Both the position numbers and the translations under genes were made by a program. Of a stretch of 64,000 nucleotides of DNA, positions 218 to 46,668 are shown piece after piece. Numbering within the stretch: position 1 is the stretch's first letter; the number at the start of each line of letters is the position of its first letter. The notes beneath the pieces are model-generated. The model worked only from the letters and a program-made list of their open reading frames with translations. It had not been told where the DNA came from and made no database searches. Source of the stretch: a virus; IMG/VR virus record IMGVR_UViG_3300032182_000187, positions 8,497-72,496 of that record; one strand, written 5' to 3'.

Positions 218-979
218 TCAGATGTATTCATAGATGACCACGATGCCATCTTTACCAGTTGATCCATGCCCATTTCTTCTATAACCACCAGCACCTCCTG
301 CGCCAGGAGCAGCATTATCTTTGTAGTTATACGCAAAGTTACCGCCATTTGGATGACCACAAGGACCACCACCGCCGAAGAAACTTGCTCCAGCATTACC
401 CACACCATAATAGATGTGTCCTGATCCCCCGCCACCAATAATATTTAGGTCTCCGCCAGAACCAGAACCTCCAATACCGCCACAATGTCTATCGGTTTGA
501 TTTCCGCCATTTCCTCCTGTAGCAGACAAAAGACTACCAAATGAAGTAGTTCCTCCTGCACCTGCAGCAGCAGAATATGTAGCATAATCAACGCTACCAA
601 GTCCAATAGTAACGCTAACAGAAGATCCAACTTGTGCTGGTGTCAATAGTCTTTCCGCATATCCACCAGCACCACCAGATTCTGAATATCCAGATCCAGC
701 ACCACCACCACCAGTGAGCATGACAAAGATCCTTGTTACATCTGATGGAATATTATATGTTCCACTTTCGTTAAAAACAACAATATTGTCTGGACCTGCA
801 ACGTTATATGAAACAGCACTGCCATCTGTATACAATGCCTTACTAGGATTTAATGCAGGGTCTGGTGGCATAGTGTCTTCATTAATAGTCATACCAGCCA
901 CTGATAGACTATAACCATCTGGAATATGAATTACCCCAGTTTGAGACGATACAATTTCGTTTACTTTAATTGTTGACAT
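218..979 (-). CDS. Glycine-rich fibre/adhesin-like virion protein, paralogue 3
   Basis: 253 aa; N-terminal MSTIKVNEI motif; GGGG/GAGG blocks and FGSxLSATGG motif; collinear with the two upstream paralogues. Confidence 0.8.
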   Translation of the reverse strand: MSTIKVNEIVSSQTGVIHIPDGYSLSVAGMTINEDTMPPDPALNPSKALYTDGSAVSYNVAGPDNIVVFNESGTYNIPSDVTRIFVMLTGGGGAGSGYSESGGAGGYAERLLTPAQVGSSVSVTIGLGSVDYATYSAAAGAGGTTSFGSLLSATGGNGGNQTDRHCGGIGGSGSGGDLNIIGGGGSGHIYYGVGNAGASFFGGGGPCGHPNGGNFAYNYKDNAAPGAGGAGGYRRNGHGSTGKDGIVVIYEYI

Positions 980-980
980 T

Positions 981-1739
981 TTATTTAAATTCGTATACTA
1001 CAACGAGACCACCTTTACCATATCCACCCTGGATTGAAGTGTGATAACCAGGAGATCCACCAGCACCAAATGCAGCACTAGCAGTATTATCTAGGGCATA
1101 ATCACCTGCGTTTGGATATCCAGTAGGACCAGATCCTCCAAAAAAAGAATTGCCGCCTGTAGGACCAGCATAATACTGGTGACCTGCCCCACCACCACCA
1201 TATAGATTCATATCACCACCAGAACCTACACCACCTACACCACCACAGTGTCTATGATCTTGATTGCCTCCTTGACCACCAGTAGCAGAAAGATAACTTC
1301 CGAAAGAAGTAGTTCCTCCGTTAGATGCAGCATCCGAGTATTGTGTAGAATCTGTATTCCCGTTTCCGATTGTTACGGTTACTGAAGATATTCCAGTAAT
1401 ATCAATAAGTCTTTCTGCATATCCACCAGCACCTCCGCCCTCACCAACTCCAGACGCAGATCCTCCGCCACCAACAAGACGAACTAAAATTTTATTTACG
1501 CCTGAATCTGGGGTGTATGTGCCACTACTAGTAAAAGTTACCATTCTGTGTGGACCTACTGCGGTCCACGAAGCAACTCCACCAACACATTTCAAAAATT
1601 TTCCTGCCTGTCCAGAAGTCGATGGGGGCATTGCTGTGCCATCTAAAATCTTTCCATCCAGACTCAAGTTATGACTAGATGGAATTTCGATTGTGGTTCC
1701 AGAAGAAGATTTAATTTCGTTAATTCTTAAAATTGACAT
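981..1739 (-). CDS. Glycine-rich fibre/adhesin-like virion protein, paralogue 2
   Basis: 252 aa; same architecture (TFTSSGTYTP...VRLVGGGG...GLVVVYEF). Confidence 0.8.
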   Translation of the reverse strand: MSILRINEIKSSSGTTIEIPSSHNLSLDGKILDGTAMPPSTSGQAGKFLKCVGGVASWTAVGPHRMVTFTSSGTYTPDSGVNKILVRLVGGGGSASGVGEGGGAGGYAERLIDITGISSVTVTIGNGNTDSTQYSDAASNGGTTSFGSYLSATGGQGGNQDHRHCGGVGGVGSGGDMNLYGGGGAGHQYYAGPTGGNSFFGGSGPTGYPNAGDYALDNTASAAFGAGGSPGYHTSIQGGYGKGGLVVVYEFK

Positions 1740-2498
1740 TTACATATACTCCATGATTACAACAATACCATTTGATCCTTTTGCTCCACCGTGGGATCTT
1801 GCCCATCCACTAGCACCACCGCATCCAGGAGCAGCATTTTCTTCATTATTAATAGGATATCTTCCTCCATTTGGGTGTCCACCTGGACCACCACCTCCGA
1901 AATAACTTCCACCCCCTTTACTATTATATCGACCGTGACCTGCACCGCCGCCTCCATAGATAGAAAGCATTCCACCAGATCCTACTCCACCTGGACCTCC
2001 AGAGTGTCTAGCAGCTTGATTAGCACCACTTCCTCCACCAGCAGTCATAAAAGAACCGAAAGAAGTGGTTCCTCCAGTTCCAGCTGCTCCTGCATAAGTA
2101 GTACCACTACCTCCAGTACCTACAGTAACTGCGACTGTATTAATATTATTATCTTCTAGGTTAATAAAACCTTCACAGTATCCAGCAGCACCACCAGTTT
2201 CTGAATAACTAGTTCCACCACCGCCACCACCAACAAGTCTAACATAAACAATTTTGGTTCCTGCACTAGGAACGTATTGTCCACTTTGAGTAAAAACAAT
2301 AATATTACCAGCACCATAATCAGAATAAACGAAACCAGTTCCATCTGAATAAACTAGTTTACCATCTTGACCAGAAGTTGACGGCAAAACTTTATTTTTA
2401 TCCAGAGCTCTTGAACCAATTTGCAACGAATGTCCTGCAGGAATCAGGACAGTCGTGCCAGTGGATGCTTGGATTTTGTTTACGAATAGTGTACTCAT
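1740..2498 (-). CDS. Glycine-rich fibre/adhesin-like virion protein, paralogue 1
   Basis: 252 aa; same architecture; its stop directly abuts the next start codon. Confidence 0.8.
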   Translation of the reverse strand: MSTLFVNKIQASTGTTVLIPAGHSLQIGSRALDKNKVLPSTSGQDGKLVYSDGTGFVYSDYGAGNIIVFTQSGQYVPSAGTKIVYVRLVGGGGGGTSYSETGGAAGYCEGFINLEDNNINTVAVTVGTGGSGTTYAGAAGTGGTTSFGSFMTAGGGSGANQAARHSGGPGGVGSGGMLSIYGGGGAGHGRYNSKGGGSYFGGGGPGGHPNGGRYPINNEENAAPGCGGASGWARSHGGAKGSNGIVVIMEYM

Positions 2499-2504
2499 AG
2501 TTCT

Positions 2505-5500
2505 TTACACAACAGACCAGGCAGAACCTGCCGAGATAGTAATTGTTACGTTATTATTTATAGTCAATGGTCCTGCACTTACAGCATTGGTGTTTGATGG
2601 AATAGTGACATCTTCTGAGATAATAGTTCTGTTAGTTTTAAAGATGCCATAACTATCAATATACTGACGATCTCCATTAACATAGAAGACTTCAGTATTT
2701 GCACCACTGGTAAAGGAAGCACCATTGATACCGAAACTTCCAGAAACCTGTAAACCGTAGTCTGGGTTGCCAGTAAATCCATTTGCAGTAGGATCTGCAT
2801 TGATCCAAACTTTAGATGCTCTAAAGATATCAAGTTCATTTTGTGCTTCAGTCCAACGTGAAGTAACGAACTCAGCGTTGTTCTGGAATAGTTGACCATT
2901 GAAGTTAACATCACCTTGAATGTTCAGTTGATAATTTCTTAGTGTGTTATCTTCAGGATCTGTTCCACTGAATGCAGTTGTATTGATTGCAACTCTTCTA
3001 GTGTTACCCTTGATTGCGATAGCAGGAGTTGTGCCCCAGTCAACGCCACCATTGGAATCAGAAGGTGTGATATCAAAGACATCATCTGCAAGTAACTGAT
3101 TACCAATTCTGAAGTTTCTGAATCCAGTGGATCCTTTAAATTCGATTGGAGCACCATTGTTGTTAGATGCATCATTAATAAGAAGTTTAGTGGAGGTATA
3201 AATATTGCCTGCCACATGTAGTTTATAATCCGTTGCGGTAGTTCCAGTCGTTCCTAAGAACAGGGTGCCAGTGCTATTGAGTTGCATTCTAACTGCACCC
3301 GCATTGGAACCAGATCCAGCAGAAGAGTTAACTGTAGGAACAGATGTTCCATCAAACGAAACTGTGAAATAACCAACATTACTATCGTCTGCACCAATTG
3401 CCCAGAACTGATCGTCGGTTCTGTCGCTAAATCCAATCTGTGGAGATCCAGCAGTATAACCCAACTGAATTCTTCCATGGTTTGAAGTCTGCTCTTCAAA
3501 GATTGCCCAGACATCGTTACCTTCAATAGATCCATCATTAGGAGTGATAATGTGCAAGAGAGACTGTGGATTGTTATGTCCAATACCAACACGTCTGTCC
3601 GTAGAATCAACATACAGAACGTCAGTTGCAACAGAAAGATCGGTAGCGATTGTGACATTGCTTAGGAAGTCTGCTCTACCAGAAATGCTCAGTGCCTGGG
3701 TAGTTGCTAATACACCAGTAATGGTCAAAGGACCAGACATAGTATCACCAGACTTCAGTACGTTCAGCGAAGCAGAACCTACCAGTTCAGCACCAGCATC
3801 TAGAGTGATAGTGCCAGCACCGAATCCACCGTTAGCATCACGAATAACACCTGTGTTTGCTACGCTTCCAGTATTGAAAGTAATGTTACCAGTGTTCCAG
3901 ACTGTGTTGCCGTTGATGGAGAAACCATCAGCGTTGACAACCTGTACGTCTAACGTACCGCTGGAGTCTGTGCTATTACCACCAGTTGCGATAATTGCAG
4001 TGTTATAGTTTGCTGCTGCTTGTTCAGAAGATCTGAAGTAGATACCTGGGGAAGAAGGAATGCCATCCTTTCTACCAAGTCTGAGGTTTGCAGTACCACC
4101 ATCACTCTCAAGTCTTGCAACTTGGAAAGTGCCTGTGGAGTCAAGGGTGAAATCTTGGAAAGCAACACGGTTGTTTGCTTCACCAATAGTCTCAGCACCA
4201 TCGAAAGTACCAGACTGTAGTACACCGTAGATGATTGTGAAATCGTTGAAGTTATCAGTTTCGTCGTTAGTTACGATCTGAGTAATCTGAATTTCACCAA
4301 CACTCTGTGCAAGGTTATTGTAGAGGTTAATTGGGTTGCCAGGTAAGAATGGCGAAGAAGTTAGAATTGCACCAGAGATGTAGATTCTATATCTTGCGTT
4401 ACCAGAGATCGAAAGGATATCTAAACTGTCCTGAATCGACTTAGGAGTGAAGAAGTCTGGCAGTCTATTGTCGGACAACTCACCGAAGTTCATGTTGTAT
4501 GCGTTCTGATACCAGATACCTTGACGGTTGTCCAGTTTGTCAGCATCAAGGTCAGTACCAGGACCATCGTTGAGTGAGGTCCAGACCTTACCCCAAGAAC
4601 CCCAGTCATCCAGAGTGGTTCCAGAACCACGGAGCCACATGTTGTCATTATCAGTAAATGCTAACTGTCTAGCACCACCACCAGTAGCATCAAATCCAGA
4701 ACCGAAGTTTCTGATAGTCATTACTAGGTGTCTTTGACCACCGTCGAGGAGACCATCAGCAGTGTTGTTTCTAGTATCAGCAATAATACCAGAAGAGAAC
4801 AGGTTAGGAGATGGAGAAGACGTTGGGTTAGTTACACCAGTAACGAGTCTGAGAGTGTTACCAGACTGACCCGAGATGCTGATGTTGTATGTACCAGACA
4901 TACGATCTGTTGGTACAGTACCTGCGTTTAAGTTAGAAGCATCTAGGTAGTAAGCACCCTGCACACCGTCTAGAAGGTCAGCATCAAGACCACTATCAGC
5001 ACCAGTCTTCAGTGTGATAGAACCGTTTCCAGATTCTCCAATCTCGAACTGAGACTTTCTAAATCTCGAAACACCGATTGTGCCATATTCATCAGCAGAA
5101 ATTGTCTGGTTAGTAGCACGAAGAACGTCAACCGAAACGTTAGCAAACTGCTTATTAACTGTACTAATCTTCGCCTGGAGAACGAGACCAACACCAGATC
5201 CAATCTCTGCAGGCAGAGAGGTGATGTTAAAGTCTGCATTGTAGTTAAGACCACCATCAGTTACGGTGAGTTCAGTAACCTCTCCACCAGAAACAATGAC
5301 GTTTGCTTTGAGTCCTGTACCAGTACCACCACTTAGAGTCTGGTCAAAGTATTGACCATCAGTGAAACTAGAACCACCCTCAGCAACAACAATGTTGTCT
5401 ACGAATGTACCTTGAGTGTAAGAAGACTCAAATGTAATTGGAGAAGCGCCACGCTCAAATTCAATAATAGTTCCTGCGGGAATTGTTGCAATCAGTGGGT

Positions 5501-8500
5501 TGGAGATAGATACAGTTGTCAAACCGCCAGAGGTAAGAACACCATCAATGTTAGTGTTTTCCTGAATACCAACGACATTTGCTACTACTTCGTGACCAAG
5601 TAGAGTGTCGGAATTGGTAGTAAAGATTAACTGCTGACCACCAATACTTGCATCACTGTATAGTCTAGCAAAGTATCTTGTCTCAGCACCCTTAATAGAC
5701 TGAACTGCCAGAGCATAAGACTGGTCACCACGTAAGAATGTGAAGGAGTTTGCAGCGTTGGAGTTAAGTGCCAAACGAGCAGTCTCAATAACACCCGAAG
5801 TAATGTCAGATGCTGCAATCTGGTTAGAGGATAGAGATACCCAGTTATTGCTATTGAAAGAAGAGGTGTTAACAACTCTTGTGACATTAACTACTGTTGG
5901 TGGAAGATCACTAGAGTTGATGGTGTCTGCCTCAGTTAACTTGAGTCTGTTTACAATGTCACCATAAAGTCTGTTTTCAATTAGAGCACTACCAGTTGCT
6001 TGTGTACCAGAACCAGATGGTGCAGAGAAGGTAACTGTTGGTTGTACAGTGTATCCCTTACCACCAATAAGACCATTAAACTCTTGGATTTCAACAACAA
6101 CGACCTGACCGTTAGCAATTTCTGCTGTAGCAGATGCTTGGATGTTGCCAGCAGTTGGTTGACCACCAGTAATTGTAATAACAGGTGGGGAAGTGTATCC
6201 AGAACCAGGATCTGTGATGATGATCTGGAATACAACACCAGTTCTGTATTCAGTTGCTTGAATCTGACCGTTAGACTGACTACCAGTAAAGATATCACCT
6301 AGGGTGAATGATAGGGTAGGATCAACGGGGAAGGATACAAACAGACTATCTAAGTCATTGTTAAGAATGAACGATGTCGATGTATCCTGTTGGATTGCGA
6401 TGTCACCTGCAAGTGCGCCTTCAATGGAGGTTCTTGCTGTAGCATCGGGAACAGTGAATACACTGAAAGGACGTAGAGCAGGGATCTGGTCAACAGAAAT
6501 CTTACCAGAGTCGGTAAGTTCGACCAGTGCTCTAGGAACAGCGTTTGTAGAATATGGTTTGTTGATGTAAGGACCAAGGTTATTTGTAATGTAGTCCTTA
6601 ACTGCTTTCTGAGTAGGTAGTTTGGAGTCAGTGGAGTTAGCGCCACCCAGTGTGTTGGATGCGTCGAAACCAGTAACAACAACGTCGCCACCCTTCAGTT
6701 TCAAGAATTCAACTTCCGAGATCGTAACCGTACCAGTGAAGGTGATGTTACCAGTTCTGTTCTCGATTCTTGCGAAAACACCAACCTTGAAGTCACCAAG
6801 TTCGTCAGTACCAGAGACGTATACACGACCATAGCGTTCAGAAACTTGCTCGTTTGCTTCAACTTTAACACCACCGTTTTCAGGCAAGGAGTTGTAGTTA
6901 GTACCAGAACCTGCGAATTCCCAAGTGTGGGAGGAGGAGTTAACGATAGAAGGTCTGTGTAGTCTGATTGTCTCACCATTCAGACTGGTTGTGGATACTG
7001 CTTGCTGGGTAGCAATATTCTTAAATTCAGCACCGCCACCAGAACCAGAGTCAATTGTAAGTTGAGCAGAGAAAGGAGGACCAACTGTTACAGCATCAAC
7101 TGCATCAATGAAGTATTCAATCTCAGCACTTACGTTTTCAAAACCATCAATCTTGACGATATAGTGCTCAAGAGGTTCTCTTCCAAGACCATCAACGGTA
7201 AAGATTGTTCTACCAGTTGGAGTAGCAGATACGTTCGTGATAGTACCAACGTCAAAGATGTATGCCTCTTCTCTAAATCCAATAGCACGTAGAGCGAAGA
7301 TACCGAAGTTGGTAGCAGAGTTAGTGATAGATGCATAACCACCAGACTCAGAAAGAACACCATCAGCACAGAAGATAACGAAGACCGAAACCAACTGAGT
7401 GTAACCATCGTTGATAACCTTATAACCAATACCACCGAAGGAAACAATCGTGAATGCCGCAGCAACCATCGACTTACCCTGGTTGGGGAAAGTTGCGGAA
7501 CCGTCAAGTTCTAGACCTGCGAAAGGACAGTTAGGTTGTTTGACTCTAGAACCGTCAATTAGAGCACCGCCACCACCTAGGAAGGAGATGATTGAAGAGT
7601 TCTGGGTATATGGAGATGCTTCAATGATTGGGAAATCATCGAAATCAGAACGTGGTGTAAGAACAGTTCCGTTAGCATCGTAGATAGTTACGTCTGGATA
7701 TGTGTAAAGATCAACCGTATCTAGAAGTGTGCCATAGTTCTTAACTGTACCACCAGGAGCAATATCTCCACGAAGAATATCGTTGAGCAGTGTGAAGGAG
7801 GTTGTAATGGCAGACTCAATACCTGCACAGTATGGAGTTCCTAGTTGATCAACTAGAATGCTGCTATCTGTGAACAGAGGAATTGGTGAATGAACTGGAG
7901 TATATACTGCACCCGCACCACCTAAGGTCGCCCAGTTCCTCATAGCGAGGATACAAAGATCTCTTACCTGCTCGAAAGCATAGATGGTTTCATCTCTCTG
8001 TGCTTCGGGAATACCAGTTAGAATAGTTCCAGAATAATATTCCTCAGCGTTCGTAACAATAGCGGCATTACCACCGAGAATAATATCTCTAATCAATGCA
8101 GTGATAATATAGTTAATATCTCTTCTGCATTTTCTTTGATTAATATCATTCAGAAGAAGGGATGGATACTGCGCTTCAGTCTTGCCTAGTGCTTCATCCG
8201 CAATGAAGTCTCTGTTTCTAGCAATCAGGTAACCTGCATCCAACTTAGTACCAGATGCGTCATTAGTTAGAACATCGACAAACAGATAGGACAGAACATT
8301 GATTGCTGACTTAACGTTTGCACAATGCTCGACTCCAGGTTGAGTTAGATCTTCTAGAATCGTTGGGTCGATGTACTTGGGTAGAGAAGTATACTGTGCG
8401 GTATAAACGGGATCCGTTGGAAGACCTGTGCCAGTTCTCCACTTACGCATTGCAAAGATTGCTAGTTCTCTAGCATACTCAATTGCACGTACAGTTTGAA

Positions 8501-11500
8501 TAATTTCGTTATCGATGTAGGTAGCAATTTGAGTGCCTTGAATGTACTTCTTAGCAGCGTCAATAACATTGTAGTTGCTTCCATACTCAAGGTCACGGAT
8601 GACAGCATTAAGGAAGTGTCTAATGTCTCTACGACACTTGTTGTCACTAACTGGAATATTGAAACTTGGATATGTCTTCTGTGTAACTACGTTATCAACA
8701 GTACACTCAAGAAGAATGTCAGCAAGTTGTACGATACTATCATTTGCTAGTCCTGGGATAGCACTATCAGTTGTGATAGTAGCAGCACCAGTTACAGTAT
8801 TGTCATAAACAAAGCTGGTGATATTATAAGTAGATCCACCAAATGTTACTGTTCCGCCACTTACGTAGTCATGAACAAATCTCGATGGTCCGAGGAATAG
8901 TTTGAATTCGTCGCCACCAACAGACAAAGCATTAGTTGCTGCTCTTACAAATGTGTGAGCAGACTGTGGTAAATGTTTGACTGCTTCTGCAGTAGCACTC
9001 ACAAATGTGTGAGTAGATTGTGGTTCAAACTTAATTGCTCCAGGTTGAGCACTTACGAAGGTGTGCGTAGAACCCGATGCAGTGCCTGCGTCACCGACGT
9101 TGATAGTAAATGTGCCAGTTTGCCTTCTAATAGCGTCTGTAGCGATGCTGACGAGGGTGTGAGCGCCTGTGTAATCAGAACCACCAATGTTGATTCTAAA
9201 TCCATCCTGAGTTACATTGTCAATCTCAAAGTAACGGTTGCTAGCATAGTCGTAGTTAGTTCTTGGGTAAGACTTGTTAACCGTATTGCCATCTAGAACA
9301 CAGGAATAGGTGAGGGCATTATCCTCGACCATAATGTAATCACCATCAGCAAATCCATGACTTGCTAAGGTGAACTGGATAGTTCCTGCAGCAGCGTCAT
9401 AAACTGCATCTGTAGGAGTGTGAGATGTGAAACCAACGTTAGTGATTTCAATGGACTTACCAGAGTAAGGATCTTGTCCTGCACGAGGATATGTGTGGAC
9501 TTGGGTATTGCCGTCTTGATCGCAAGTGAATGCGAAAGAATTGTCCTCAAGAACAACATGCTTACCAACTTGTAAACCATGCTGCCCTACAGTGACAGTC
9601 ATGTCACCAGTTGAGGCATTGTATGCAACGTCTGTTGGTTGGAAATATTTGTTAGCGGGAGAAGCACCAACATTAACTGTGATGGTGTTCTCGGAAATCG
9701 CTGTGATGGGGATAGAACGCTGTGAGAAGAGATCGTGTCCAGGTCTTGGATAGGTCTTGGCAGCGTCATTGCCATCCATGGTGCAGGTAAAGGTCAACGA
9801 GTTGTCATCGATGACAATACCTTCTCCTACATCTAGTTGGTGAGTTCCAATGGTAAGAACTAAGTTACCTGTTGCAGGATCATAAGTTGCATTAGTTGGA
9901 GTGTACAGTTGGTTAGGACCAGAAGCACCAACATTAAGTGTAAACGTATTAGTGGTTACTGATTCAATAGGAATTGCTTTGCCAGTAGCATAGTGATGAG
10001 ATTGTGGTGCAGTGTGCTCGGTATTGTTACCGTCCATTGCACAAGTGAAGACAATGCTGTCCTCTTCAATCTTTACACCATCACCAACAGATAACCCGTG
10101 GTTTGCAACAGTGAATGTAGAAAGACCAGTCGCAGGATCATAAGTTACATCAGTAGGAGTGAACTGCTGTGTTGGTGTACCATCTACATCATATACAGCA
10201 AAGTATTCTTTCTTAAATTCATCATTGACTCTACCAACAACTTCATCTGCAATAAAGTCGATATTGTTTCTAATTTGTAGAGAAGCATCTTGGAATCTTC
10301 TTGCTACAGGTGTCGCCATATCAAATTTGTTTGGCGAGTTCAGCAAGGAAAGAGTTACGCCCTTAGATGCCGAAGAAACCTTCGCTAGGTTGCCAGGTTC
10401 AAAATTGGAGTCTGTGATGACCGAAGTCTTTTTGGGAATAACAAAACGTCTCGAACGACCGTCAGCATCTTCGAGAACTTTGTAAATTCTCTGCTTACCA
10501 TTCAAGAATGATAAGTCAGGACCAGAAGTAGGCAGACCTTCAATTAGAATTTCTTGACCTTCTTTTAGTTCGTGGACGTTCTGTCTACCAATCAGTGCGT
10601 TGGTGTAGAAGACGATACCACCAAGATCCTCTGGACCAGCGCCGTCCCATCCATATTGGAATCCACCAGTAGCAACTTCGTCTGTGCCCTGTAGAGAGAA
10701 GTCAATTCTGGAAATAGGATACTCTACTTCTCCTGGTTCATTGGTGAATACAACTTCACCCTCTGCTCTAATGGACTGAATGTCAGTAGAAACGAACTCA
10801 TATTCTGCATCCAGATAATCCAGTGCGTTTGCTCTTGCAGATACAAATGTATGTGGATAGTTGCCACCAGAGATAACAGCGTTTGCTAGAGCACTATCAA
10901 ATGCATGTTCATACTGATCGTCAGGTCCAGATGCACCTACGTTAATTGTAATTGTTGTAGAAGTTACTTCTAGAATTTCTACCGCAGTGTCGTATGCTGG
11001 GTCAGTTGTTCTTGGATAGAAGTGGACACTGGAATAACCATCTTGAGAGCAGGTAAAACCAAGAGACTCTGTTCTTAACTTAATAGAAGTTCCTACAGTT
11101 AGCGTATGAGTGCCAATTGTTAGAACAGCAACACCAGATGCAGGGTCATAGGTAGCATAAGATACCTGATGATTGACAAGTTGAGAGTCGCCAACATCAA
11201 GTTCAAATGTATTAGTTGTTGCTGCAGAAATAGTTAGGAACTGGTTTGCAATTGGGTCGGAAGATCTTGGATAGTATTTGACATTGGTGTTTCCATCCAT
11301 GTCACATGTGAATCCAAGAGATTCGATGTTAATACGAATTTTATCACCATTAGCAAATCCATGGTTGGGAACCGTAAACTCGGAGATACCAGTTTGTGGA
11401 TCGTAGGTTACGTTTGTTGGTGTATATGGAGTGGTAATGAAGTATTCAAATGTTTCACCAGAGATGAATGAACCACTGAGAATTTCAATGTTAGCAGTAC

Positions 11501-12974
11501 CTGAGATGTAAGCTTGTACACCTGTAACTGTGTCAAATACTACTTCATTGACTAATGCAGTTGCACCAGTGTTAACACCTCTTAGAGATAGACCAGCGGT
11601 AAGCTGGTTTAAACCAGTGTTTGTCTGGAAGGTAACTCTCTCACGATTTGGACCAAAGATCTGGTGACCAACTGGGAAACTTAATCCAAAGTCTCCATTA
11701 GCAGATGCATCAACTTCAATTCTTTGCTTGTCATCGAAGACCATAGCAAAGTCCCACGTTGCAACAGAGTCGCCGTTGGAATCAATTTGGTCACGATAGG
11801 TAACACCGATGACATAGTTCTTGTCACCAAATTTGAAAATATGCTTTCTTGGGTTTGCTGGGCGGATGATAACCAGACGCAGGTTGTCACCAACAACCGA
11901 TGCATCGGGAGGAATGGAAATTGGGTTATCTTCTAGATAATCACCGCCAGCAACGATAATTGTTTCTTTGACGCCAGGTGTTTTCCATGCTTCCTGACAT
12001 GCTTTTTTAATTGTTCTTACAGGAGCAACAGCAGAACGACCATCGTTGTCGTCACTACCAATAGTCTGCGAAACGTAGATACGACCACCAACGTCGTTCT
12101 GTGCTAGGTTCAGAACATATTCTGTAGTTGCAATCTTGTCAGACTTATCACCCAGGAGAGGTGTGATAGATCTTGGATAGAGACCTGAGTCACCAGTCTC
12201 TTCGTAGTAAGGTTGAGTATCGTCAACAATACGGAAACCAATATGCTTCAGTTGTGCGGTTCCGTTCGCCTCAATACCATCAATGTGTGTAGGAGCAGAG
12301 GTTCCAGTAGTACCAGTTTCAATAACCTGATATACATTACCACCAAAATATCTAAAAGTATTCTTCTGAACAATAACGTTAGGTGCCCAGAGAGTACCAC
12401 TGTTGTTAATATAAGTTTTTAAGTTTGGTGCTCTAAAGTTTGCGTCTGGAGTAACGAAGTTATCGATATCCAGGTTTAGAATTCTCGCCGTGTCTGAAAT
12501 GATCGACGTAGATGTTCTAATAGCACCGTTAATGTCAAGTTCAAAGTCAACAGTATCTAGGAATGCGATACCAACAGCACCAGTACCATTACCACCACTA
12601 ATTTGTACGACTGGAGCAGTTTCGTATCCATCACCAGGATCATCAACAATAATCGCACTAACTTGACCATTGAAAATTGCCGCCGATGCCAATGCTTGAC
12701 GACCACCCTCCAAAGTTGGAGCACTAAGTTCAACTGTAGGGACTAAGGTGTACCCACTACCACCCTGTCCATCGGGAATATCAATTCTTTCAACTCTTTT
12801 ACCAGTTCTATTAATACCTACCCTAGGTAGACCTGTCTCAGCGTCTAACTGTGCTCTAAAGATCTCCCTCTCTGTTGCCCCAGTTCCAGCACGAATTACA
12901 TAAGTTTGGTCTGCGATAACCGATGGGTTGACCGCCCTTAAAATTTCCTTATCAGAATTAAACTGAAAACTCAT
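2505..12974 (-). CDS. Giant tail-fibre-like virion structural protein with beta-domain repeats and two phycobiliprotein-like domains
   Basis: 3489 aa; G-x-GY repeats, GLDADLLDG/DLDADKLD fibre motifs, YDPxTG...FTCxxDG repeats, two KCRRDI motifs, C-terminal SAGPLTI...WSVV. Confidence 0.85.
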   Translation of the reverse strand: MSFQFNSDKEILRAVNPSVIADQTYVIRAGTGATEREIFRAQLDAETGLPRVGINRTGKRVERIDIPDGQGGSGYTLVPTVELSAPTLEGGRQALASAAIFNGQVSAIIVDDPGDGYETAPVVQISGGNGTGAVGIAFLDTVDFELDINGAIRTSTSIISDTARILNLDIDNFVTPDANFRAPNLKTYINNSGTLWAPNVIVQKNTFRYFGGNVYQVIETGTTGTSAPTHIDGIEANGTAQLKHIGFRIVDDTQPYYEETGDSGLYPRSITPLLGDKSDKIATTEYVLNLAQNDVGGRIYVSQTIGSDDNDGRSAVAPVRTIKKACQEAWKTPGVKETIIVAGGDYLEDNPISIPPDASVVGDNLRLVIIRPANPRKHIFKFGDKNYVIGVTYRDQIDSNGDSVATWDFAMVFDDKQRIEVDASANGDFGLSFPVGHQIFGPNRERVTFQTNTGLNQLTAGLSLRGVNTGATALVNEVVFDTVTGVQAYISGTANIEILSGSFISGETFEYFITTPYTPTNVTYDPQTGISEFTVPNHGFANGDKIRINIESLGFTCDMDGNTNVKYYPRSSDPIANQFLTISAATTNTFELDVGDSQLVNHQVSYATYDPASGVAVLTIGTHTLTVGTSIKLRTESLGFTCSQDGYSSVHFYPRTTDPAYDTAVEILEVTSTTITINVGASGPDDQYEHAFDSALANAVISGGNYPHTFVSARANALDYLDAEYEFVSTDIQSIRAEGEVVFTNEPGEVEYPISRIDFSLQGTDEVATGGFQYGWDGAGPEDLGGIVFYTNALIGRQNVHELKEGQEILIEGLPTSGPDLSFLNGKQRIYKVLEDADGRSRRFVIPKKTSVITDSNFEPGNLAKVSSASKGVTLSLLNSPNKFDMATPVARRFQDASLQIRNNIDFIADEVVGRVNDEFKKEYFAVYDVDGTPTQQFTPTDVTYDPATGLSTFTVANHGLSVGDGVKIEEDSIVFTCAMDGNNTEHTAPQSHHYATGKAIPIESVTTNTFTLNVGASGPNQLYTPTNATYDPATGNLVLTIGTHQLDVGEGIVIDDNSLTFTCTMDGNDAAKTYPRPGHDLFSQRSIPITAISENTITVNVGASPANKYFQPTDVAYNASTGDMTVTVGQHGLQVGKHVVLEDNSFAFTCDQDGNTQVHTYPRAGQDPYSGKSIEITNVGFTSHTPTDAVYDAAAGTIQFTLASHGFADGDYIMVEDNALTYSCVLDGNTVNKSYPRTNYDYASNRYFEIDNVTQDGFRINIGGSDYTGAHTLVSIATDAIRRQTGTFTINVGDAGTASGSTHTFVSAQPGAIKFEPQSTHTFVSATAEAVKHLPQSAHTFVRAATNALSVGGDEFKLFLGPSRFVHDYVSGGTVTFGGSTYNITSFVYDNTVTGAATITTDSAIPGLANDSIVQLADILLECTVDNVVTQKTYPSFNIPVSDNKCRRDIRHFLNAVIRDLEYGSNYNVIDAAKKYIQGTQIATYIDNEIIQTVRAIEYARELAIFAMRKWRTGTGLPTDPVYTAQYTSLPKYIDPTILEDLTQPGVEHCANVKSAINVLSYLFVDVLTNDASGTKLDAGYLIARNRDFIADEALGKTEAQYPSLLLNDINQRKCRRDINYIITALIRDIILGGNAAIVTNAEEYYSGTILTGIPEAQRDETIYAFEQVRDLCILAMRNWATLGGAGAVYTPVHSPIPLFTDSSILVDQLGTPYCAGIESAITTSFTLLNDILRGDIAPGGTVKNYGTLLDTVDLYTYPDVTIYDANGTVLTPRSDFDDFPIIEASPYTQNSSIISFLGGGGALIDGSRVKQPNCPFAGLELDGSATFPNQGKSMVAAAFTIVSFGGIGYKVINDGYTQLVSVFVIFCADGVLSESGGYASITNSATNFGIFALRAIGFREEAYIFDVGTITNVSATPTGRTIFTVDGLGREPLEHYIVKIDGFENVSAEIEYFIDAVDAVTVGPPFSAQLTIDSGSGGGAEFKNIATQQAVSTTSLNGETIRLHRPSIVNSSSHTWEFAGSGTNYNSLPENGGVKVEANEQVSERYGRVYVSGTDELGDFKVGVFARIENRTGNITFTGTVTISEVEFLKLKGGDVVVTGFDASNTLGGANSTDSKLPTQKAVKDYITNNLGPYINKPYSTNAVPRALVELTDSGKISVDQIPALRPFSVFTVPDATARTSIEGALAGDIAIQQDTSTSFILNNDLDSLFVSFPVDPTLSFTLGDIFTGSQSNGQIQATEYRTGVVFQIIITDPGSGYTSPPVITITGGQPTAGNIQASATAEIANGQVVVVEIQEFNGLIGGKGYTVQPTVTFSAPSGSGTQATGSALIENRLYGDIVNRLKLTEADTINSSDLPPTVVNVTRVVNTSSFNSNNWVSLSSNQIAASDITSGVIETARLALNSNAANSFTFLRGDQSYALAVQSIKGAETRYFARLYSDASIGGQQLIFTTNSDTLLGHEVVANVVGIQENTNIDGVLTSGGLTTVSISNPLIATIPAGTIIEFERGASPITFESSYTQGTFVDNIVVAEGGSSFTDGQYFDQTLSGGTGTGLKANVIVSGGEVTELTVTDGGLNYNADFNITSLPAEIGSGVGLVLQAKISTVNKQFANVSVDVLRATNQTISADEYGTIGVSRFRKSQFEIGESGNGSITLKTGADSGLDADLLDGVQGAYYLDASNLNAGTVPTDRMSGTYNISISGQSGNTLRLVTGVTNPTSSPSPNLFSSGIIADTRNNTADGLLDGGQRHLVMTIRNFGSGFDATGGGARQLAFTDNDNMWLRGSGTTLDDWGSWGKVWTSLNDGPGTDLDADKLDNRQGIWYQNAYNMNFGELSDNRLPDFFTPKSIQDSLDILSISGNARYRIYISGAILTSSPFLPGNPINLYNNLAQSVGEIQITQIVTNDETDNFNDFTIIYGVLQSGTFDGAETIGEANNRVAFQDFTLDSTGTFQVARLESDGGTANLRLGRKDGIPSSPGIYFRSSEQAAANYNTAIIATGGNSTDSSGTLDVQVVNADGFSINGNTVWNTGNITFNTGSVANTGVIRDANGGFGAGTITLDAGAELVGSASLNVLKSGDTMSGPLTITGVLATTQALSISGRADFLSNVTIATDLSVATDVLYVDSTDRRVGIGHNNPQSLLHIITPNDGSIEGNDVWAIFEEQTSNHGRIQLGYTAGSPQIGFSDRTDDQFWAIGADDSNVGYFTVSFDGTSVPTVNSSAGSGSNAGAVRMQLNSTGTLFLGTTGTTATDYKLHVAGNIYTSTKLLINDASNNNGAPIEFKGSTGFRNFRIGNQLLADDVFDITPSDSNGGVDWGTTPAIAIKGNTRRVAINTTAFSGTDPEDNTLRNYQLNIQGDVNFNGQLFQNNAEFVTSRWTEAQNELDIFRASKVWINADPTANGFTGNPDYGLQVSGSFGINGASFTSGANTEVFYVNGDRQYIDSYGIFKTNRTIISEDVTIPSNTNAVSAGPLTINNNVTITISAGSAWSVV

Positions 12975-13529: not shown

Positions 13530-16500
13530 TTACTTATTTACATAACTGGTGATTGTTACATTACAAGAGTTTCCAAGATTTAGATCTGGATGTAGAGATA
13601 CGTTAACTCTAACATTGTTTAATGCATTATAATCAAAAGTTGCAGTGAACAAATCAATTCCAGTCTTGATGTTACCGTAATCAGTATATACAATATCTGT
13701 ACCATTATCTATAACAGAAAGTTCAAGTTGTTCTTTCTGGTTTAGAGTAGTATTTTCGACTGTAATTAAAATTCTTGCTCCTTTATCTGTAGTTTTATAA
13801 ACTTCAGTACCAAAAGTATCATTTGTTCCTTTTACCAAAGTAGAAACAGCAGATTTGATTCTAACATCAGCAAACTCAACTGTTCTCAAATCTCCACTAA
13901 CCATGGTCAAGAAATCTGGAACTCCACCACCATTTGGGAAGTTAACATTGTATTTAATATCACCTGTATCAGATAGTCTCAAGAACTTGTCAATGGTAAG
14001 ACCTTGCGACATACCAATGTCAAAGTGCTCTCTGGTGGTATAGAGATAAGTCTGAGTAGTATCACTATGCTCTAGAACCAGAGCACCATTCTCGAATGTC
14101 AGACTTTCAATATTAACATTCAGATTATCTGTTGTGGAGGAGAATACATCTTCAATACCATCAAAGATAAATTCATTCTCAGTAACTCTAACAGTGTTTA
14201 CACCGTTGTTGTAGAAAAACAAAGTGTTCTCGTTTTCGCCAGGAGCAGTTTCTGGGATGATGTACGTGTTACCATCAACGTCACGAACACCACCAAGAGA
14301 AGACCAGTTGTTTCCATCATAACCTTCATATTGAAGGATGTCTGTGTTAAATCTAATCGAACCAGTTACTGCAGCACCTCTTTGGTTGTTATCTCCAACA
14401 GGAATTTTTAAAGAACTTGCTGCATCAATAGAAACTTTCTTACCAGAGTTTGGTCTAATAATTAAGTCATTGATGTCTGTAGAAATTACATTTCCAAGGA
14501 AACGAAGTTCTCCACTAACAACGAGTGGAGTATCTCCAAATGGGTCAATACGAACTTCAGAAATTTCTTGGAATGTTAGAGCATCTACAGCAGTAGCAAT
14601 CCACTGTAGAGTTGCAGTACCATTGATAAATGGATCTCCGCTAGTATCGGTTGGTTCGTTACCAGATGTTGCGGTAACACCAGCACCGACAACCTCATAG
14701 ATGTTGTTTCTGTACTTGAGTTTTGTGGTGGGTGTAGTAACCGTTACAGGAATATTTGCAAACCACTCTGTATATGTTGGTGCGGTGGTGTTTGCAGATC
14801 TAATCTTCTTAGTGTTTCTAAAGTCTAAGAAGTTTCTTGTTACCTGTAATGTATTAACGTTATCGTTGTAGAAGTACAAAGTATTGTCATTTGCACCTGG
14901 GAATGCTTCTGCATCGATGTATGTGTTGCCGTCAAGGTCTCTAACACCGCCCAGAGAGGACCAGGAAGACGTTGTTTCGCTGTATCCTTCATATTGGTTC
15001 GTTTCGGTGTTAAAGCGGATTGCACCGTCTTGTACCTGCCCCACAAGAGGTCTTGCAGACGTATCACCTTTGGGGATAACCAGTGCTGTCGCAGAATCAA
15101 TTTTAGTAATCTTTCCAGCAGCAGGAGCAATAAAGATACTATGGTTTGTAGTAGCAGAAATAGTATCATTAACAATGCTCAGAACATCATTGACATTAAT
15201 TTTGTTGGTAGTCTTGATAATACCATTAGTATTGAGAGTACCAGTGTCTCCATTGACTGTAAAATTATCACCAAGCGATAATGATGTGCCAGTAAAGATA
15301 ATCTCTCCACCCAAAGCAGTAATGGAGGTCAGGGTTGTTTTGTCTGCGTTCAATTCTAACGCAACTTCTGGTGTTACGGTTCTTGTGAATTCTCCCTCGT
15401 CTCCAGTGATATCTGTTGTTGTGATAGTTTCTACGTTTACATCAGTACCTGTGATAGAAGAAACATTGAAAGAACCATCAGCAACAGCACCTGTAATAAT
15501 ATCAAGTTCTTGTACTTCAAATGCTAAAATTTCAAATCCCGAACCAAAAGTCTTGGGGTTATTGAAATCAATAGTAATTGAACTAGTACCAGACATACCT
15601 GGATGGACGCCACAATAATAATACATAGTGGCTGGAGTAGTATCTGAAGGAGTGAATACTACATAATCGTCTGCATAAGTAACTTCAGCGCCATCATATT
15701 GAACACCAGCAAATACAGCAACAGCAGCACCAGGACTAGATGGAAATTCTGTTAACGTAATTGTATTGCCGTTAATTGCTTCAACAAAAGTATTCTCTGC
15801 AAATTCTCCAGGTTCAGTCTCATTATTTGTAGTAACAGCCATGCCAACTTGAATCGAGGAGGCATCAGTTACCGTAATATCTTTAGAATCAGTAGCAACA
15901 GTTACAGTCTCGGAATATTGATTGTGGATACCATCTTGGAAAATACTAAATCTGAATGGGTGACTACCAACATTCTGGACATCAAATCTATACCTATTGT
16001 TTACAAATAAAGTTAAACTTGGGAAATTTTGAACATTGCTACCATCTTCAGAATCATCTAAAGTGTATCTATTGACATCTTCTACTGATGCTACACTATG
16101 AGTTGAATTACCAGTAACATTATACCCAACATCTGCACTACCATCTGCCCAAGCAACTACAATACTTGCAATACTGCTGCCACTAAGATTAACTTCTAAT
16201 ACTTCACCAGTCGAAGTAAGACCTTCACTATCAGACGGGTCAACCGTAGTAACAGTTTGTCCTGGTGAATATGCACTATTGGGAACAGTGCCAGTGAATG
16301 TAATTAATTGACCCGAAACCGTACCTACAATATAGTCAATAGGTTGTGTTAAATCAAAAGGATTTACTGTTAATACGTCTCCATCGGCGTAACCATTACC
16401 AGGGTTATTAACTGCAATTGCAGTAACAACACCAACTTTATCAATAGTATAAGCGTAACCACTGCCAGCATCTCCCCAAGGAACTGTTAAAGTTAATACT

Positions 16501-17357
16501 ATTGTTCCAGTAGTAGAAGCACTAGTGTTTAGTGTAATTGAATTATTTTCAGAATCGACTCCACTAACAACAATATCCAGAGGATTATTCTCAGGATCTA
16601 AAGGTGTAGTAAGAGCTCCAGTGCCGCCAGTTTGGGTGACGATCATACCTTCAATAATACCAGCAACACTAGAAATTCCAGTTACGGTATTTTGGTCCTG
16701 AGTTACAGAACCACTAACATTAGATACTGATGTTGGTAGAGTTAAGACATCTCCTACTTGGTAACCTTCTCCATAAACCTCGATATTTGTAGTACCAAAT
16801 CCACCGTTAATAAACAGAATACTAACAAGGTTACCTGTACCATTACCACCTTGTAGGGGAATATTACTATATTCTGTACCACCCTCTGGACCAACATAGA
16901 CATAGTTTTGTCCAGGGGTAGTAGTACCACTATACTCAGAAACTGTGATATTATACGATCCACTTTCACCAGTACCACCAAAGACAGAAATATCTTCGTA
17001 ACCACCTACATCATAATTTTGACCCGATGCCTGAATTTCACTACCTTCAGTAAACAGAGTTGCTTTTCTAATAATAAAGTCTCTATAGTATACAGAACCA
17101 GAATTACTGTATTCAAAAATTCTTTTAGTTGCACTAACAAATGTTGCAGTATTCTGCTCAGATTTATATAAACCTAATTGTAAATCTGAAGTAAATGCTA
17201 GAGAAGGTTCATTCTTTGTACCATCACCTAACTTCAGATTTCCTGTGGCGAGATCACTACCACCAGCAGCAAATGCGAAGACGTTCTCTGCTATCGTATT
17301 GATTTTTTGCCTTTGAATTTCAAAGGTATCTGTTTTTGCTACATTAATTGCTGGCAT
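13530..17357 (-). CDS. Large virion structural protein with cupredoxin-like motif
   Basis: 1275 aa; N-terminal MPAINVAKTDTFEIQRQKIN; duplicated GxIRFNT...YEGY...WSSLGGVRDxDGNTYI modules; YYYCGVHPGM motif. Confidence 0.8.
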   Translation of the reverse strand: MPAINVAKTDTFEIQRQKINTIAENVFAFAAGGSDLATGNLKLGDGTKNEPSLAFTSDLQLGLYKSEQNTATFVSATKRIFEYSNSGSVYYRDFIIRKATLFTEGSEIQASGQNYDVGGYEDISVFGGTGESGSYNITVSEYSGTTTPGQNYVYVGPEGGTEYSNIPLQGGNGTGNLVSILFINGGFGTTNIEVYGEGYQVGDVLTLPTSVSNVSGSVTQDQNTVTGISSVAGIIEGMIVTQTGGTGALTTPLDPENNPLDIVVSGVDSENNSITLNTSASTTGTIVLTLTVPWGDAGSGYAYTIDKVGVVTAIAVNNPGNGYADGDVLTVNPFDLTQPIDYIVGTVSGQLITFTGTVPNSAYSPGQTVTTVDPSDSEGLTSTGEVLEVNLSGSSIASIVVAWADGSADVGYNVTGNSTHSVASVEDVNRYTLDDSEDGSNVQNFPSLTLFVNNRYRFDVQNVGSHPFRFSIFQDGIHNQYSETVTVATDSKDITVTDASSIQVGMAVTTNNETEPGEFAENTFVEAINGNTITLTEFPSSPGAAVAVFAGVQYDGAEVTYADDYVVFTPSDTTPATMYYYCGVHPGMSGTSSITIDFNNPKTFGSGFEILAFEVQELDIITGAVADGSFNVSSITGTDVNVETITTTDITGDEGEFTRTVTPEVALELNADKTTLTSITALGGEIIFTGTSLSLGDNFTVNGDTGTLNTNGIIKTTNKINVNDVLSIVNDTISATTNHSIFIAPAAGKITKIDSATALVIPKGDTSARPLVGQVQDGAIRFNTETNQYEGYSETTSSWSSLGGVRDLDGNTYIDAEAFPGANDNTLYFYNDNVNTLQVTRNFLDFRNTKKIRSANTTAPTYTEWFANIPVTVTTPTTKLKYRNNIYEVVGAGVTATSGNEPTDTSGDPFINGTATLQWIATAVDALTFQEISEVRIDPFGDTPLVVSGELRFLGNVISTDINDLIIRPNSGKKVSIDAASSLKIPVGDNNQRGAAVTGSIRFNTDILQYEGYDGNNWSSLGGVRDVDGNTYIIPETAPGENENTLFFYNNGVNTVRVTENEFIFDGIEDVFSSTTDNLNVNIESLTFENGALVLEHSDTTQTYLYTTREHFDIGMSQGLTIDKFLRLSDTGDIKYNVNFPNGGGVPDFLTMVSGDLRTVEFADVRIKSAVSTLVKGTNDTFGTEVYKTTDKGARILITVENTTLNQKEQLELSVIDNGTDIVYTDYGNIKTGIDLFTATFDYNALNNVRVNVSLHPDLNLGNSCNVTITSYVNK

Positions 17358-17541
17358 CTCTTACGATCTCTCTAAGAAGTTGTTTGATTTCAGATAGTTC
17401 TTCCTTCAATGTATTTATGTCATGTTTCATACTATGAAACTCAGATGAGACTCTCCTACTAGAGATTTTATCTTTGTTGATAATTGCTCCAGTAGAAGAG
17501 TCTCTAACTAGGTTTGGATGACCTTCAACTTGTATGTACAT
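17344..17541 (-). CDS. Conserved small baseplate-region protein
   Basis: 65 aa; VEGHPNLVRDSSTGAIIN followed by a coiled coil; overlaps both neighbours. Confidence 0.75.
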   Translation of the reverse strand: MYIQVEGHPNLVRDSSTGAIINKDKISSRRVSSEFHSMKHDINTLKEELSEIKQLLREIVRDASN

Positions 17542-25625: not shown

Positions 25626-25664
25626 CGTAAATGAGTCTCTCTAGTTGATCCTGTTTCCCTCTAT

Positions 25665-25671
25665 TATTTAG
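25665..25671 (-). promoter_or_regulatory. T4-type late promoter variant (CTAAATA)
   Basis: TATTTAG on + strand, 39 nt upstream of the VrlC-like start and just past the gp8 terminator. Confidence 0.6.
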
Positions 25672-25678
25672 CAGGGAT

Positions 25679-25707
25679 AAAAAAAATCCCCCGATTTCTC
25701 GGGGGAT
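25679..25707 (-). terminator. Rho-independent terminator after gp8
   Basis: Minus strand ATCCCCCGA-GAAA-TCGGGGGAT followed by a T-run. Confidence 0.9.
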
Positions 25708-25729
25708 CTGAAAGATATGTTTGAGGAGA

Positions 25730-27559: not shown

Positions 27560-27594
27560 TGAAAATCTCTCTTAGAAACGTTGTTGTCTTTGGT

Positions 27595-27608
27595 TATTTA
27601 TATTTATA
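27595..27608 (-). promoter_or_regulatory. Two overlapping T4 late promoters (TATAAATA)
   Basis: TATTTATA on + strand at 27595-27602 and 27601-27608, upstream of gp8. Confidence 0.8.
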
Positions 27609-27613
27609 ATGAA

Positions 27614-46077: not shown

Positions 46078-46668
46078 CTAAGAGTAATAACTAATATTCA
46101 GTGGAGAATTACCATATGATGTACACAGTTCTGCTGGTGTACAATCAAATGCCAATGTAATCCTTCTATGGTCAGTATAGTTAGGTGTTACATCATGTTG
46201 GAGTACAGAAGGGAACAATGCAATAGTATTTGCTTTTGGTTCATAGATGAATTCTTCTGTATTATATGGTGTTGGATATGTAGTATCCAGTTTAGTCACC
46301 ATACAGAAATCTTTCGTGAAAGCATGTGGTTTACGAATACAAAAGTTCCCACTGTTAGGCGGTACATCAATGAATACAACACCAGAGATGATGGAGTTAC
46401 CATGATAATGTGTTTGAGCAAAATCCATGTGACCATGGAAGTTTAACCAAGATGATGTAATGTTTACCTTTGTCTTATGTCCTGTTAGTTCTATGTACTT
46501 GTCTATGTGTTGTTTTACTTGTTCTAACAGGAGAGGAAAAACATTTAAAATATCTCTATTGTATGATGTACGACCATTCCCACATGACTCCATGCGTATG
46601 TTATCCCAATGTGTTTCTTCAATTGTAATTGGTTCAATGTAGAGTGGTGTGGGAAATAGGTCAATCAT
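46078..46668 (-). CDS. 2OG-Fe(II) oxygenase-like protein (TIGR02466-type)
   Basis: 196 aa; LFPTPLY, SWLN, HYHGNSIISGVVF, LFPSVLQHDV, RITLAF. Confidence 0.85.
   Translation of the reverse strand: MIDLFPTPLYIEPITIEETHWDNIRMESCGNGRTSYNRDILNVFPLLLEQVKQHIDKYIELTGHKTKVNITSSWLNFHGHMDFAQTHYHGNSIISGVVFIDVPPNSGNFCIRKPHAFTKDFCMVTKLDTTYPTPYNTEEFIYEPKANTIALFPSVLQHDVTPNYTDHRRITLAFDCTPAELCTSYGNSPLNISYYS

Follow-up and report, generated by a model that had tools for sequence, protein, structure and literature searches.

Highly diverged phycobiliprotein domains in a giant predicted virion protein of T4-like cyanophages, with candidate bilin attachment sites

The 64,000-nucleotide window analysed here (the whole stretch of DNA, positions 8,497 to 72,496 of the IMG/VR virus record IMGVR_UViG_3300032182_000187) encodes a giant protein of 3489 amino acid residues in which two domains are highly diverged phycobiliprotein (PBP) domains of beta-subunit type, which T4-like cyanophages probably captured and incorporated into giant proteins of the baseplate or fibre. 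We consider it nearly certain that both domains are true, distant homologues of PBPs with the PBP-type globin fold. Judging from residue conservation, a bilin may be attached to the cysteines of these domains, a reading to which we assign a rough probability of 0.4. The window belongs to a 72.5-kb fragment of a virus record rated 37% complete. Across 4 kb it shares 96.3% nucleotide identity with Synechococcus phage Sf-FR1, a T4-like cyanomyovirus that has a genome of 196 kb and was isolated on WH8102.

Homology of the two domains to phycobiliproteins

A six-frame search of the window with a hidden Markov model (HMM) built from 23 domain copies returned three pieces and no other match, which makes copy 2 a complete domain and copy 1 a split one. 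The giant gene, known from the list of open reading frames (ORFs) and its translation, and the parts of the two domains are the following (E, E-value):

2505-12974, minus strand: giant structural gene, 3489 residues, predicted tail-fibre or baseplate-associated virion protein
10218..10310, minus strand: copy 1, helices A and B, residues 889-919; HMM positions 4-36 at 10209-10307, E 1.2e-3
8670..10205, minus strand: all-beta insert of ~510 residues, residues 924-1435, in the B-E loop of copy 1; strands only in the model
8259..8669, minus strand: copy 1, helices E to H, residues 1436-1572; HMM positions 23-167 at 8259-8699, E 3.4e-49
7740..8258, minus strand: copy 2, complete domain, residues 1573-1745; HMM positions 2-172 at 7749-8264, E 3.6e-76

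To judge from the annotations of its relatives and a PHROG match, the product of this ORF is a virion protein, in agreement with a sequence-only reading of the same DNA that had called it a virion fibre protein. It matches phrog_5342 'tail fiber protein' (E 0), its orthologue in Sf-FR1 (SfFR1_80) carries the annotation 'structural protein', and its orthologue in S-PM2 (p091) is annotated 'tail fiber protein', the surrounding gene order being the same as in S-PM2 p089-p091. The strings which that reading had quoted from the protein are all in place in the ORF translation, as are the four cysteines it had singled out, Cys1447, Cys1551, Cys1616 and Cys1716.

A profile of 23 domain copies was searched against 177,635 PDB sequences (E<=10), and all 59 matches were PBPs or fluorescent proteins named after PBPs. 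The best match was phycocyanin alpha 2vjr_A (E 2.7e-5), with an identical motif register: domain residues 8-66 lie on PBP residues 37-101 and Cys1616 (domain position 47) lies on Cys84. Profile-profile alignment (hhalign) with 44 PBPs from cyanobacterial genomes gave a probability of 95.8% (E 7.9e-9, 117 columns) and placed the first Cys on Cys84 or Cys82, as compared to 0.3% for the reversed alignment and at most 2.1% for 20 column shuffles. By group, the probability reached 93.3% for phycocyanin alpha, 90.0% for phycoerythrin alpha and 90.1% for an allophycocyanin-like group containing at least one phycocyanin beta; it was 20.5% for phycocyanin beta and 14.7% for phycoerythrin beta, each computed from few, similar sequences. 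Assignment to a subfamily by sequence was set aside as ambiguous across these groups, and the beta type is indicated by structure only.

The AlphaFold model of copy 2 (predicted local distance difference test, pLDDT, 83.4; predicted template modelling score, pTM, 0.84) has six helices and contains the globin-type core helices A, B, E, F, G and H. All Foldseek matches listed for this model are PBPs, mostly beta chains, with template modelling (TM) scores of 0.59-0.68, the best among them being B-phycoerythrin beta (E 5.5e-4, TM 0.66). A second structure search, independent of Foldseek and covering 48,161 representative chains (VIA), identified phycoerythrin beta 5aqd_M as the closest structure (Z-score 16.7, root mean square deviation 2.3, 150/176 residues), followed by allophycocyanin (Z 14.6) and ApcE (Z 13.6), with globin-like folds other than PBPs at 11.6 or below. 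A model spanning both domains (residues 885-1745, window 7740-10322; alignment of 20 sequences, pLDDT 80.1, pTM 0.62) yielded the same picture, all 50 matches listed being PBP beta-type chains with Z between 12.4 and 14.0. PDB profile matches, hhalign, Foldseek and the second structure search thus agree on the PBP-like globin fold that the sequence-only reading had proposed, and the fold prediction and structure search it had put forward as a check place copy 2 nearest to phycoerythrin beta.

A chance or convergent likeness of a generic helical bundle to PBPs is close to refuted. PF00502 misses the single sequences and helical bundles often reach a middling structural Z, but the PDB matches are PBP-type without exception and in the same register, the hhalign probability is far from that of any of the 21 controls, and in the structure search PBPs outscore other globin-like folds by 3-5 Z units, over most of the copy 2 model.

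Several features nonetheless distance the phage domains from canonical PBPs and count against reading them as pigment-bearing PBP domains. With the Pfam family PF00502 (cut-off 22.2 bits), neither the whole protein nor either single domain gave a match at E<=1, and the 72.5-kb record gave none at E<=10. Residues 1..166 of the copy 2 model align to chain residues 26..184 and the profile alignment starts from PBP column 42; the domain begins at about PBP residue 26-34 and the N-terminal X-Y hairpin is therefore missing. In addition to this loss, comparison of the profile with PDB sequences shows that the B-E loop has 6 residues fewer than that of PBPs.

The family extends well beyond the window. 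A search of 1.84 billion representatives identified 1358 proteins at E<=1e-3, many of them giant, with up to 35 matched stretches of the domain per representative protein. Using copy 2 as the tblastn query against 50,697 phage records, we obtained 320 matching records, named Synechococcus (255), Cyanophage (54), Prochlorococcus (10) and Marine virus (1); a distant representative with eight repeats matched 167 of the 50,697 records, again only with cyanophage or marine-virus names. Named structural matches in BFVD are tail or structural proteins of Synechococcus phages or belong to uncultured Caudovirales. A scan of 185,579 prokaryote genomes with a single domain, which reaches close relatives only, found no cellular relative. 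On this distribution, the family is tied to phages of bilin-making hosts, and its confinement to cyanophages among named phages fits capture from the host. The suggestion that the domain is host-derived is thus compatible with every phage name recovered, while the direction of transfer is one that we infer. Full-text literature searches, which leave subscription journals mostly outside their reach, found no publication describing such domains, and the papers located on cyanophage tail fibres and bilin, PMC2984593 among them, mention bilin genes only as metabolic genes.

Candidate bilin attachment sites and rival explanations

Both window copies contain a Cys-x-Arg-Asp motif at the position of the first PBP bilin site, and both belong to a subfamily with a second Cys and an Asp matching beta-Asp39. 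In helices E to H of copy 1, the key residues read K C R R D .. D G N Y C. The residues concerned are located as follows (all on the minus strand):

Copy 1: Asp896 (equivalent of beta-Asp39) at 10287-10289; Cys1447 at 8634-8636; Arg1449; Asp1450 at 8625-8627; Cys1551 at 8322-8324
Copy 2: Asp1579 at 8238-8240; Cys1616 at 8127-8129; Arg1618; Asp1619 at 8118-8120; Cys1674 at 7953-7955; Cys1716 at 7827-7829
Cys-Arg-Arg-Asp stretches: residues 1445-1467 (copy 1) and 1614-1636 (copy 2)
Second-Cys stretches: residues 1549-1561 (copy 1) and 1714-1730 (copy 2)

Conservation was examined in two sets: 78 viral contigs, which yielded 164 unique pieces (domain numbering of copy 2), and the best 150 representative proteins, with 1576 domain instances. 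At the first site, the former set retains Cys47 in 124/125, Asp50 in 126/126 and Tyr77 in 124/124 pieces; in the latter set, 1440/1476 instances have the Cys, 1378/1480 the Arg, 1468/1479 the Asp and 1458/1481 the Tyr, so that the triad is conserved in about 93-99% of instances. The proposal that Cys1447 and Cys1616 correspond to the first bilin site is therefore strengthened, these residues aligning on Cys84 or Cys82 and the Cys and Asp being near-invariant in homologues. Among the 17 positions that are at least 80% conserved in the aligned region of PBPs, only four are also the majority residue in the phage family, namely Cys82, Arg84, Asp85 and Gly100. The first three of these make up the chromophore triad, which is thus the part of PBPs that has survived. 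In PBPs, Asp87 is reported to hydrogen-bond bilin rings B and C (PMC11587079). Furthermore, degenerate copies that lack these residues but still match the fold occur in P-SSM4, P-RSM4, S-SSM5 and Syn19, and the Cys, Arg and Asp residues are therefore not needed for the fold.

The second site is less general. In the 78 viral contigs, the second Cys (Cys147) is present in 104/108 pieces and Asp10 in 90/95; of the representative instances aligning there, only 200/308 have the second Cys, which therefore marks a subfamily. When hhalign was restricted to beta subunits, the second Cys fell on beta-Cys153 and Asp10 on Asp39 (probability 35%, E 3.9e-4), and in both AlphaFold models the second Cys lies directly before the last helix. 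The second Cys and Asp10 co-vary (both in 82, Asp only in 11, Cys only in 3, neither in 36), an association whose p-value is inflated by the relatedness of the sequences. For the bilin at beta-153, beta-Asp39 is described as forming hydrogen bonds with its pyrrole nitrogens (PMC6614406, section 10). Equivalence of the second Cys to beta-Cys153 is thus supported, but less firmly than the assignment of the first site: for the earlier identification of Cys1551 and Cys1716 as a second bilin site, conservation within the subfamily and the location before the last helix hold, while the beta alignment reaches only the low probability given above.

Several observations weigh against bilin attachment at these sites. 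Arg49 is kept in only 70/126 pieces from the viral contigs, and 13 of the 17 PBP-conserved positions are not retained. In P-SSM4 (70300-76000), the first Cys is lost in all three detected copies, replaced by Gln, Lys and Val, and the second Cys is absent from both copies that reach that site, with cpeT and the fold kept. At the second site, the propionate ligands Asn35 and Thr149 are not conserved in the phage domains, and the contacts by which partner-subunit residues are reported to help hold ring D of the beta-153 bilin in PBPs (PMC6614406) are absent. Loading up to 35 copies would also require many bilins per chain. Finally, in window copy 2, the additional helix G residue Cys1674 could pair with Cys1716.

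The main rival, which we rate only slightly below bilin attachment, is that the PBP-derived bundle is a ligand-free module, a rigid joint or spacer within giant fibres, the Cys-x-Arg-Asp, Tyr and Asn residues being kept as an internal polar network that stabilises the bundle. The sheer number of repeats and of representative proteins resembles a building block, large insertions and nested arrangements are tolerated, P-SSM4 and some third copies hold the fold without the cysteines, and the family has lost the X-Y helices together with most PBP-conserved positions; moreover, no coloured or fluorescent cyanophage particle is reported in the literature that we located, which also tells against a pigment. 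This explanation is nevertheless at odds with the preservation from PBPs of the chromophore triad rather than of structural positions, with a lone, ~98% conserved Cys that has no obvious structural reason in a virion protein, with the fact that copies missing these residues still score as the fold, and with a co-variation of the second Cys and the Asp39 equivalent that mirrors a bilin site.

Other cysteine chemistry, such as an inter-chain or inter-domain disulfide, a redox switch, or the binding of a metal or another ligand where the bilin used to sit, seems quite improbable to us. The virion is extracellular and oxidised, phage fibres are usually multimers, most copies have one conserved Cys per domain, and the extra Cys in helix G is accompanied by the second Cys in 22/25 instances, all of which would suit such chemistry. 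However, it leaves unexplained the invariant Asp, the Arg and the co-variation of Asp and Cys at the second site. In addition, the first Cys is the only Cys in 771/1036 near-complete domain instances and has no partner within the domain there, so its conservation is not accounted for by an intradomain disulfide. The disulfide raised as a caveat by the sequence-only reading is thus largely answered, except in copy 2, where Cys1674 and Cys1716 may pair.

Bilin attachment must also be set against the reading of the domains as mimics of phycobilisome subunits, in which they would act inside the cell, off the particle, as decoys for host partners such as lyases, linkers or degradation factors. Their homology to PBPs and the reported manipulation of host antennae by cyanophages (PMC2984593) are in its favour. 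It is highly improbable given that the domains lie mid-way in proteins of 3000-7000 residues annotated as virion, tail or baseplate components, that the X-Y pairing helices are absent and that PBP-conserved surface positions are not kept; with only 4/17 PBP-conserved positions retained, the mimicry that had been proposed from sequence finds no support.

The cpeT lyase gene, light-dependent adsorption and proposed function

T-type lyases are reported to serve the Cys153 position of beta subunits (PMC10452541). Sf-FR1, the nearest complete relative, has a CpeT gene and neither a bilin reductase nor a haem oxygenase; cpeT was not found in the 72.5-kb record holding the window, which represents ~37% of the genome. 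We searched 28 complete phage genomes, the last 11 of which were picked partly as domain-poor, with the domain profile (E<=1e-3) and the Pfam family PF06206, and they fall into three groups:

Domain and cpeT (19): Sf-FR1, S-PM2, P-HM1, P-HM2, P-SSM4, Syn9, S-ShM2, S-SM1, P-RSM4, Syn33, Syn19, S-SSM5, P-SSM7, S-CAM7, S-SCSM1, S-SCSM2R, S-RIM2, ACG-2014d, S-RIM8
Domain only (3): ACG-2014f, S-SKS1, Sf-CH5
Neither (6): P-SSM2, S-SM2, S-SSM7, S-SRM01, S-CAM9, podovirus P-SSP7

Thus 19 of the 22 domain-bearing genomes have cpeT, and none of the 28 has cpeT without the domain (naive Fisher p 2.2e-4, uncorrected and from a non-random panel). In both Sf-FR1 (15000-33000) and S-PM2 (160000-180000), cpeT is flanked by the gp5 baseplate-hub genes and by a second giant tail gene, lying 0.5-1.5 kb upstream of the latter and on the same strand. 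As annotated, this second gene encodes 3504 residues in Sf-FR1 and 3779 in S-PM2, and contains four to five more PBP-like domains. cpeT is within 5.5 kb of a domain gene in eight further phage names. Gene order is conserved in these phages, and these neighbourhoods are therefore not independent cases. At the Sf-FR1 and S-PM2 loci, tRNA genes and small ORFs lie between the cpeT neighbours. In the S-PM2 record (NC_006820.1), 16 tRNA features at 168556-173383 are located inside the coding sequence 'short tail fiber protein' (165928-177267), an overlap that looks like an annotation clash in RefSeq.

The link between cpeT and the domain is mixed overall. In a tree of gp6, all absences are inside one well-supported clade of 11 rows. 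Within it, the sister pairs S-SSM7 with S-SCSM2R and S-SM2 with S-SCSM1 are concordant; the pairs ACG-2014f with S-CAM7 and S-SKS1 with S-SRM01 are discordant and, like the clustering of absences, count against the bilin reading. That cpeT and the second Cys are strictly coupled was rejected, S-SKS1 and Sf-CH5 having the Cys but no cpeT, and P-SSM4 having cpeT but neither Cys. A link to phage bilin synthesis genes is not supported either, as Sf-FR1 and S-PM2 are without a bilin reductase and P-SSM2 has a reductase but no domain. A count of cpeT by tblastn with one CpeT (62 records) misses divergent genes found by PF06206 and was not used.

Adsorption phenotypes provide a further lead. P-HM1, P-HM2 and S-PM2 are reported to adsorb only in the light, and P-SSM2 and the podoviruses P-SSP7 and P-GSP1 in the dark (PMC6628666). 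Intact first sites are found in 9/9 copies of S-PM2, 5/5 of P-HM1 and 5/5 of P-HM2. The domain profile finds no domain in P-SSM2, whose match to a repeat protein is limited to its fibre-tip end, and none in P-SSP7. The comparison covers five phages (S-PM2, P-HM1, P-HM2, P-SSM2 and P-SSP7), two of which are near-identical and one a podovirus, which tempers its value for the pigment reading; we regard the association of the domain with adsorption as a lead rather than a test.

If a bilin is attached, the sequence of events might be as follows. Host-made bilin would be joined by a thioether bond to the cysteines in the infected cell, before assembly. The first site could be loaded autocatalytically or by a host lyase of the S/U type, and the second by a T-type lyase, either the phage CpeT or that of the host, so that the assembled fibre would carry pigment. 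More speculatively, light absorbed by this pigment might alter the fibre and permit adsorption, which would explain why several cyanomyoviruses adsorb only in the light. We find it rather unlikely that this full scheme holds, with cyanomyovirus particles acting as pigmented photoreceptors whose fibre domains, loaded with bilin partly via phage CpeT, sense light for adsorption.

If true, it would provide a common answer to why several cyanomyoviruses adsorb only in the light independently of host photosynthesis, to what the phage lyase CpeT acts on, and to why phages of Prochlorococcus, a host without standard phycobilisomes, carry bilin genes, the reason for which has been called 'unclear' (PMC2984593). 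A virus particle with a light-absorbing cofactor would then represent a new kind of virion function. Even without bilin, the 1358 representative proteins at E<=1e-3 constitute a large, unrecognised branch of the PBP superfamily outside Pfam, one that giant phage fibres employ as a building block. Pigment on the virus particle and a light response of the particle can now be tested.

Protein layout, genomic setting and comparison with known systems

In the two-domain model, two helices (residues 889-919) are followed by 510 strand-only residues (924-1435), four helical elements (1444-1570) and the six helices of copy 2. Copy 1 helices occupy model residues 5-19 and 21-35, then 560-580, 584-594, 598-625 and 668-686, and the insert, consisting only of strands, occupies model residues 40-551. 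The string recognised as the N-terminal helix of copy 1 corresponds to residues 894-912 (window 10239-10295), and the YPSF motif starts from residue 1435, beyond the insert. Model residues 3..687, which span the insert, can be superposed with a haemoglobin chain (122 aligned, Z 6.0), modest evidence that the two halves of copy 1 may form one globin-type bundle. PBP beta chains also align across copies: their residues 6-177 match the model from residue ~598-600 through 851, as in 7s96_B (Z 14.0, root mean square deviation 2.1, 140 aligned). The place of the X-Y helices that copy 2 lacks is thus taken by helices G and H of copy 1.

An all-beta module of ~85 residues occurs in six copies, at window 10905-11429 and 9135-10166 on the minus strand (residues 516-690 and 937-1280). 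Each starts with Tyr-Asp-Pro-x-Thr-Gly and contains one conserved Cys in Phe-Thr-Cys-x-Met-Asp-Gly-Asn and a Tyr-Pro-Arg motif; by module starts taken from a pattern search, four of the six make up the copy 1 insert. Structural matches of the insert and of the module top out at Z ~8 and include the phi92 endosialidase, the Cys half-domain of an E1 enzyme and beta domains of phage fibres and tails. A His-Thr-Phe-Val repeat is found four times in the ORF (residues 708, 1304, 1322 and 1340), three of them consecutive and just ahead of the strands leading back into copy 1. In S-PM2 p091 (residues 686-1543 of the translated piece), half-domains are nested: several A-B hairpin pieces, one full domain and then several E-H bodies follow one another in a bracket-like opening and closing.

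The neighbouring genes are the following:

218-2498, minus strand: three tandem paralogous genes, 252-253 residues each, directly downstream of the giant gene
38524-40317, minus strand: gp6-like baseplate wedge gene, upstream
Upstream of the 3489-residue ORF, minus strand: gp7-like gene, 3634 residues
Upstream of the 3489-residue ORF, minus strand: gp8-like gene
Upstream of the 3489-residue ORF, minus strand: ORFs of 2694, 1275 and 169 residues

Each of the three ~252-residue paralogues has matches to phrog_863 'tail fiber assembly' and to tail-fibre families, at the C-terminal ends of the latter. Farther away, two genes resembling 2-oxoglutarate-Fe(II) (2OG-Fe(II)) oxygenases and one Nol-like carbamoyltransferase gene (46078-46668, 51318-52820 and 53181-53795, minus strand) are found, together with small ORFs, in the region upstream of another large fibre gene (56906-62452).

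Among known systems, PBP beta subunits (CpcB, CpeB and cryptophyte beta chains; PF00502) are the best structural matches of the phage domain. They share with it the globin-type core, the Cys-x-Arg-Asp with which helix E begins, the helix A Asp at the position of beta-Asp39, and a second Cys that follows a long G-H loop and immediately precedes helix H. Unlike them, the phage domain has no X-Y hairpin, is only ~13-18% identical and falls below the Pfam threshold, and it occurs in tandem within a 3489-residue virion protein, one copy being split by a 510-residue insert. The core-membrane linker ApcE offers a parallel for this architecture, as it contains a PBP-type domain with a loop insertion within a large multidomain protein, and ApcE-type structures match with Z 12.7-13.6 (4xxi_A, 7eyd_19, 9wg7_N2 and 7sc7_BD). 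ApcE attaches its bilin without a lyase. In contrast to this host phycobilisome component, the phage domains are repeated and belong to a virion protein. The beta Cys153 position targeted by the T-type lyases CpcT and CpeT (PF06206) is kept in the window domains, putative substrates of these lyases, with P-SSM4, S-SKS1, Sf-CH5 and ACG-2014f as counter-examples to such a pairing. The RsbR N-domain, globin-coupled sensors and photocobilins, some of which are signalling modules, have the same broad globin-like fold (Z 8-11.6); these non-bilin globin-like sensors score lower than PBPs, and none is among the 59 PDB profile matches, which places the phage domains with the phycobiliproteins.

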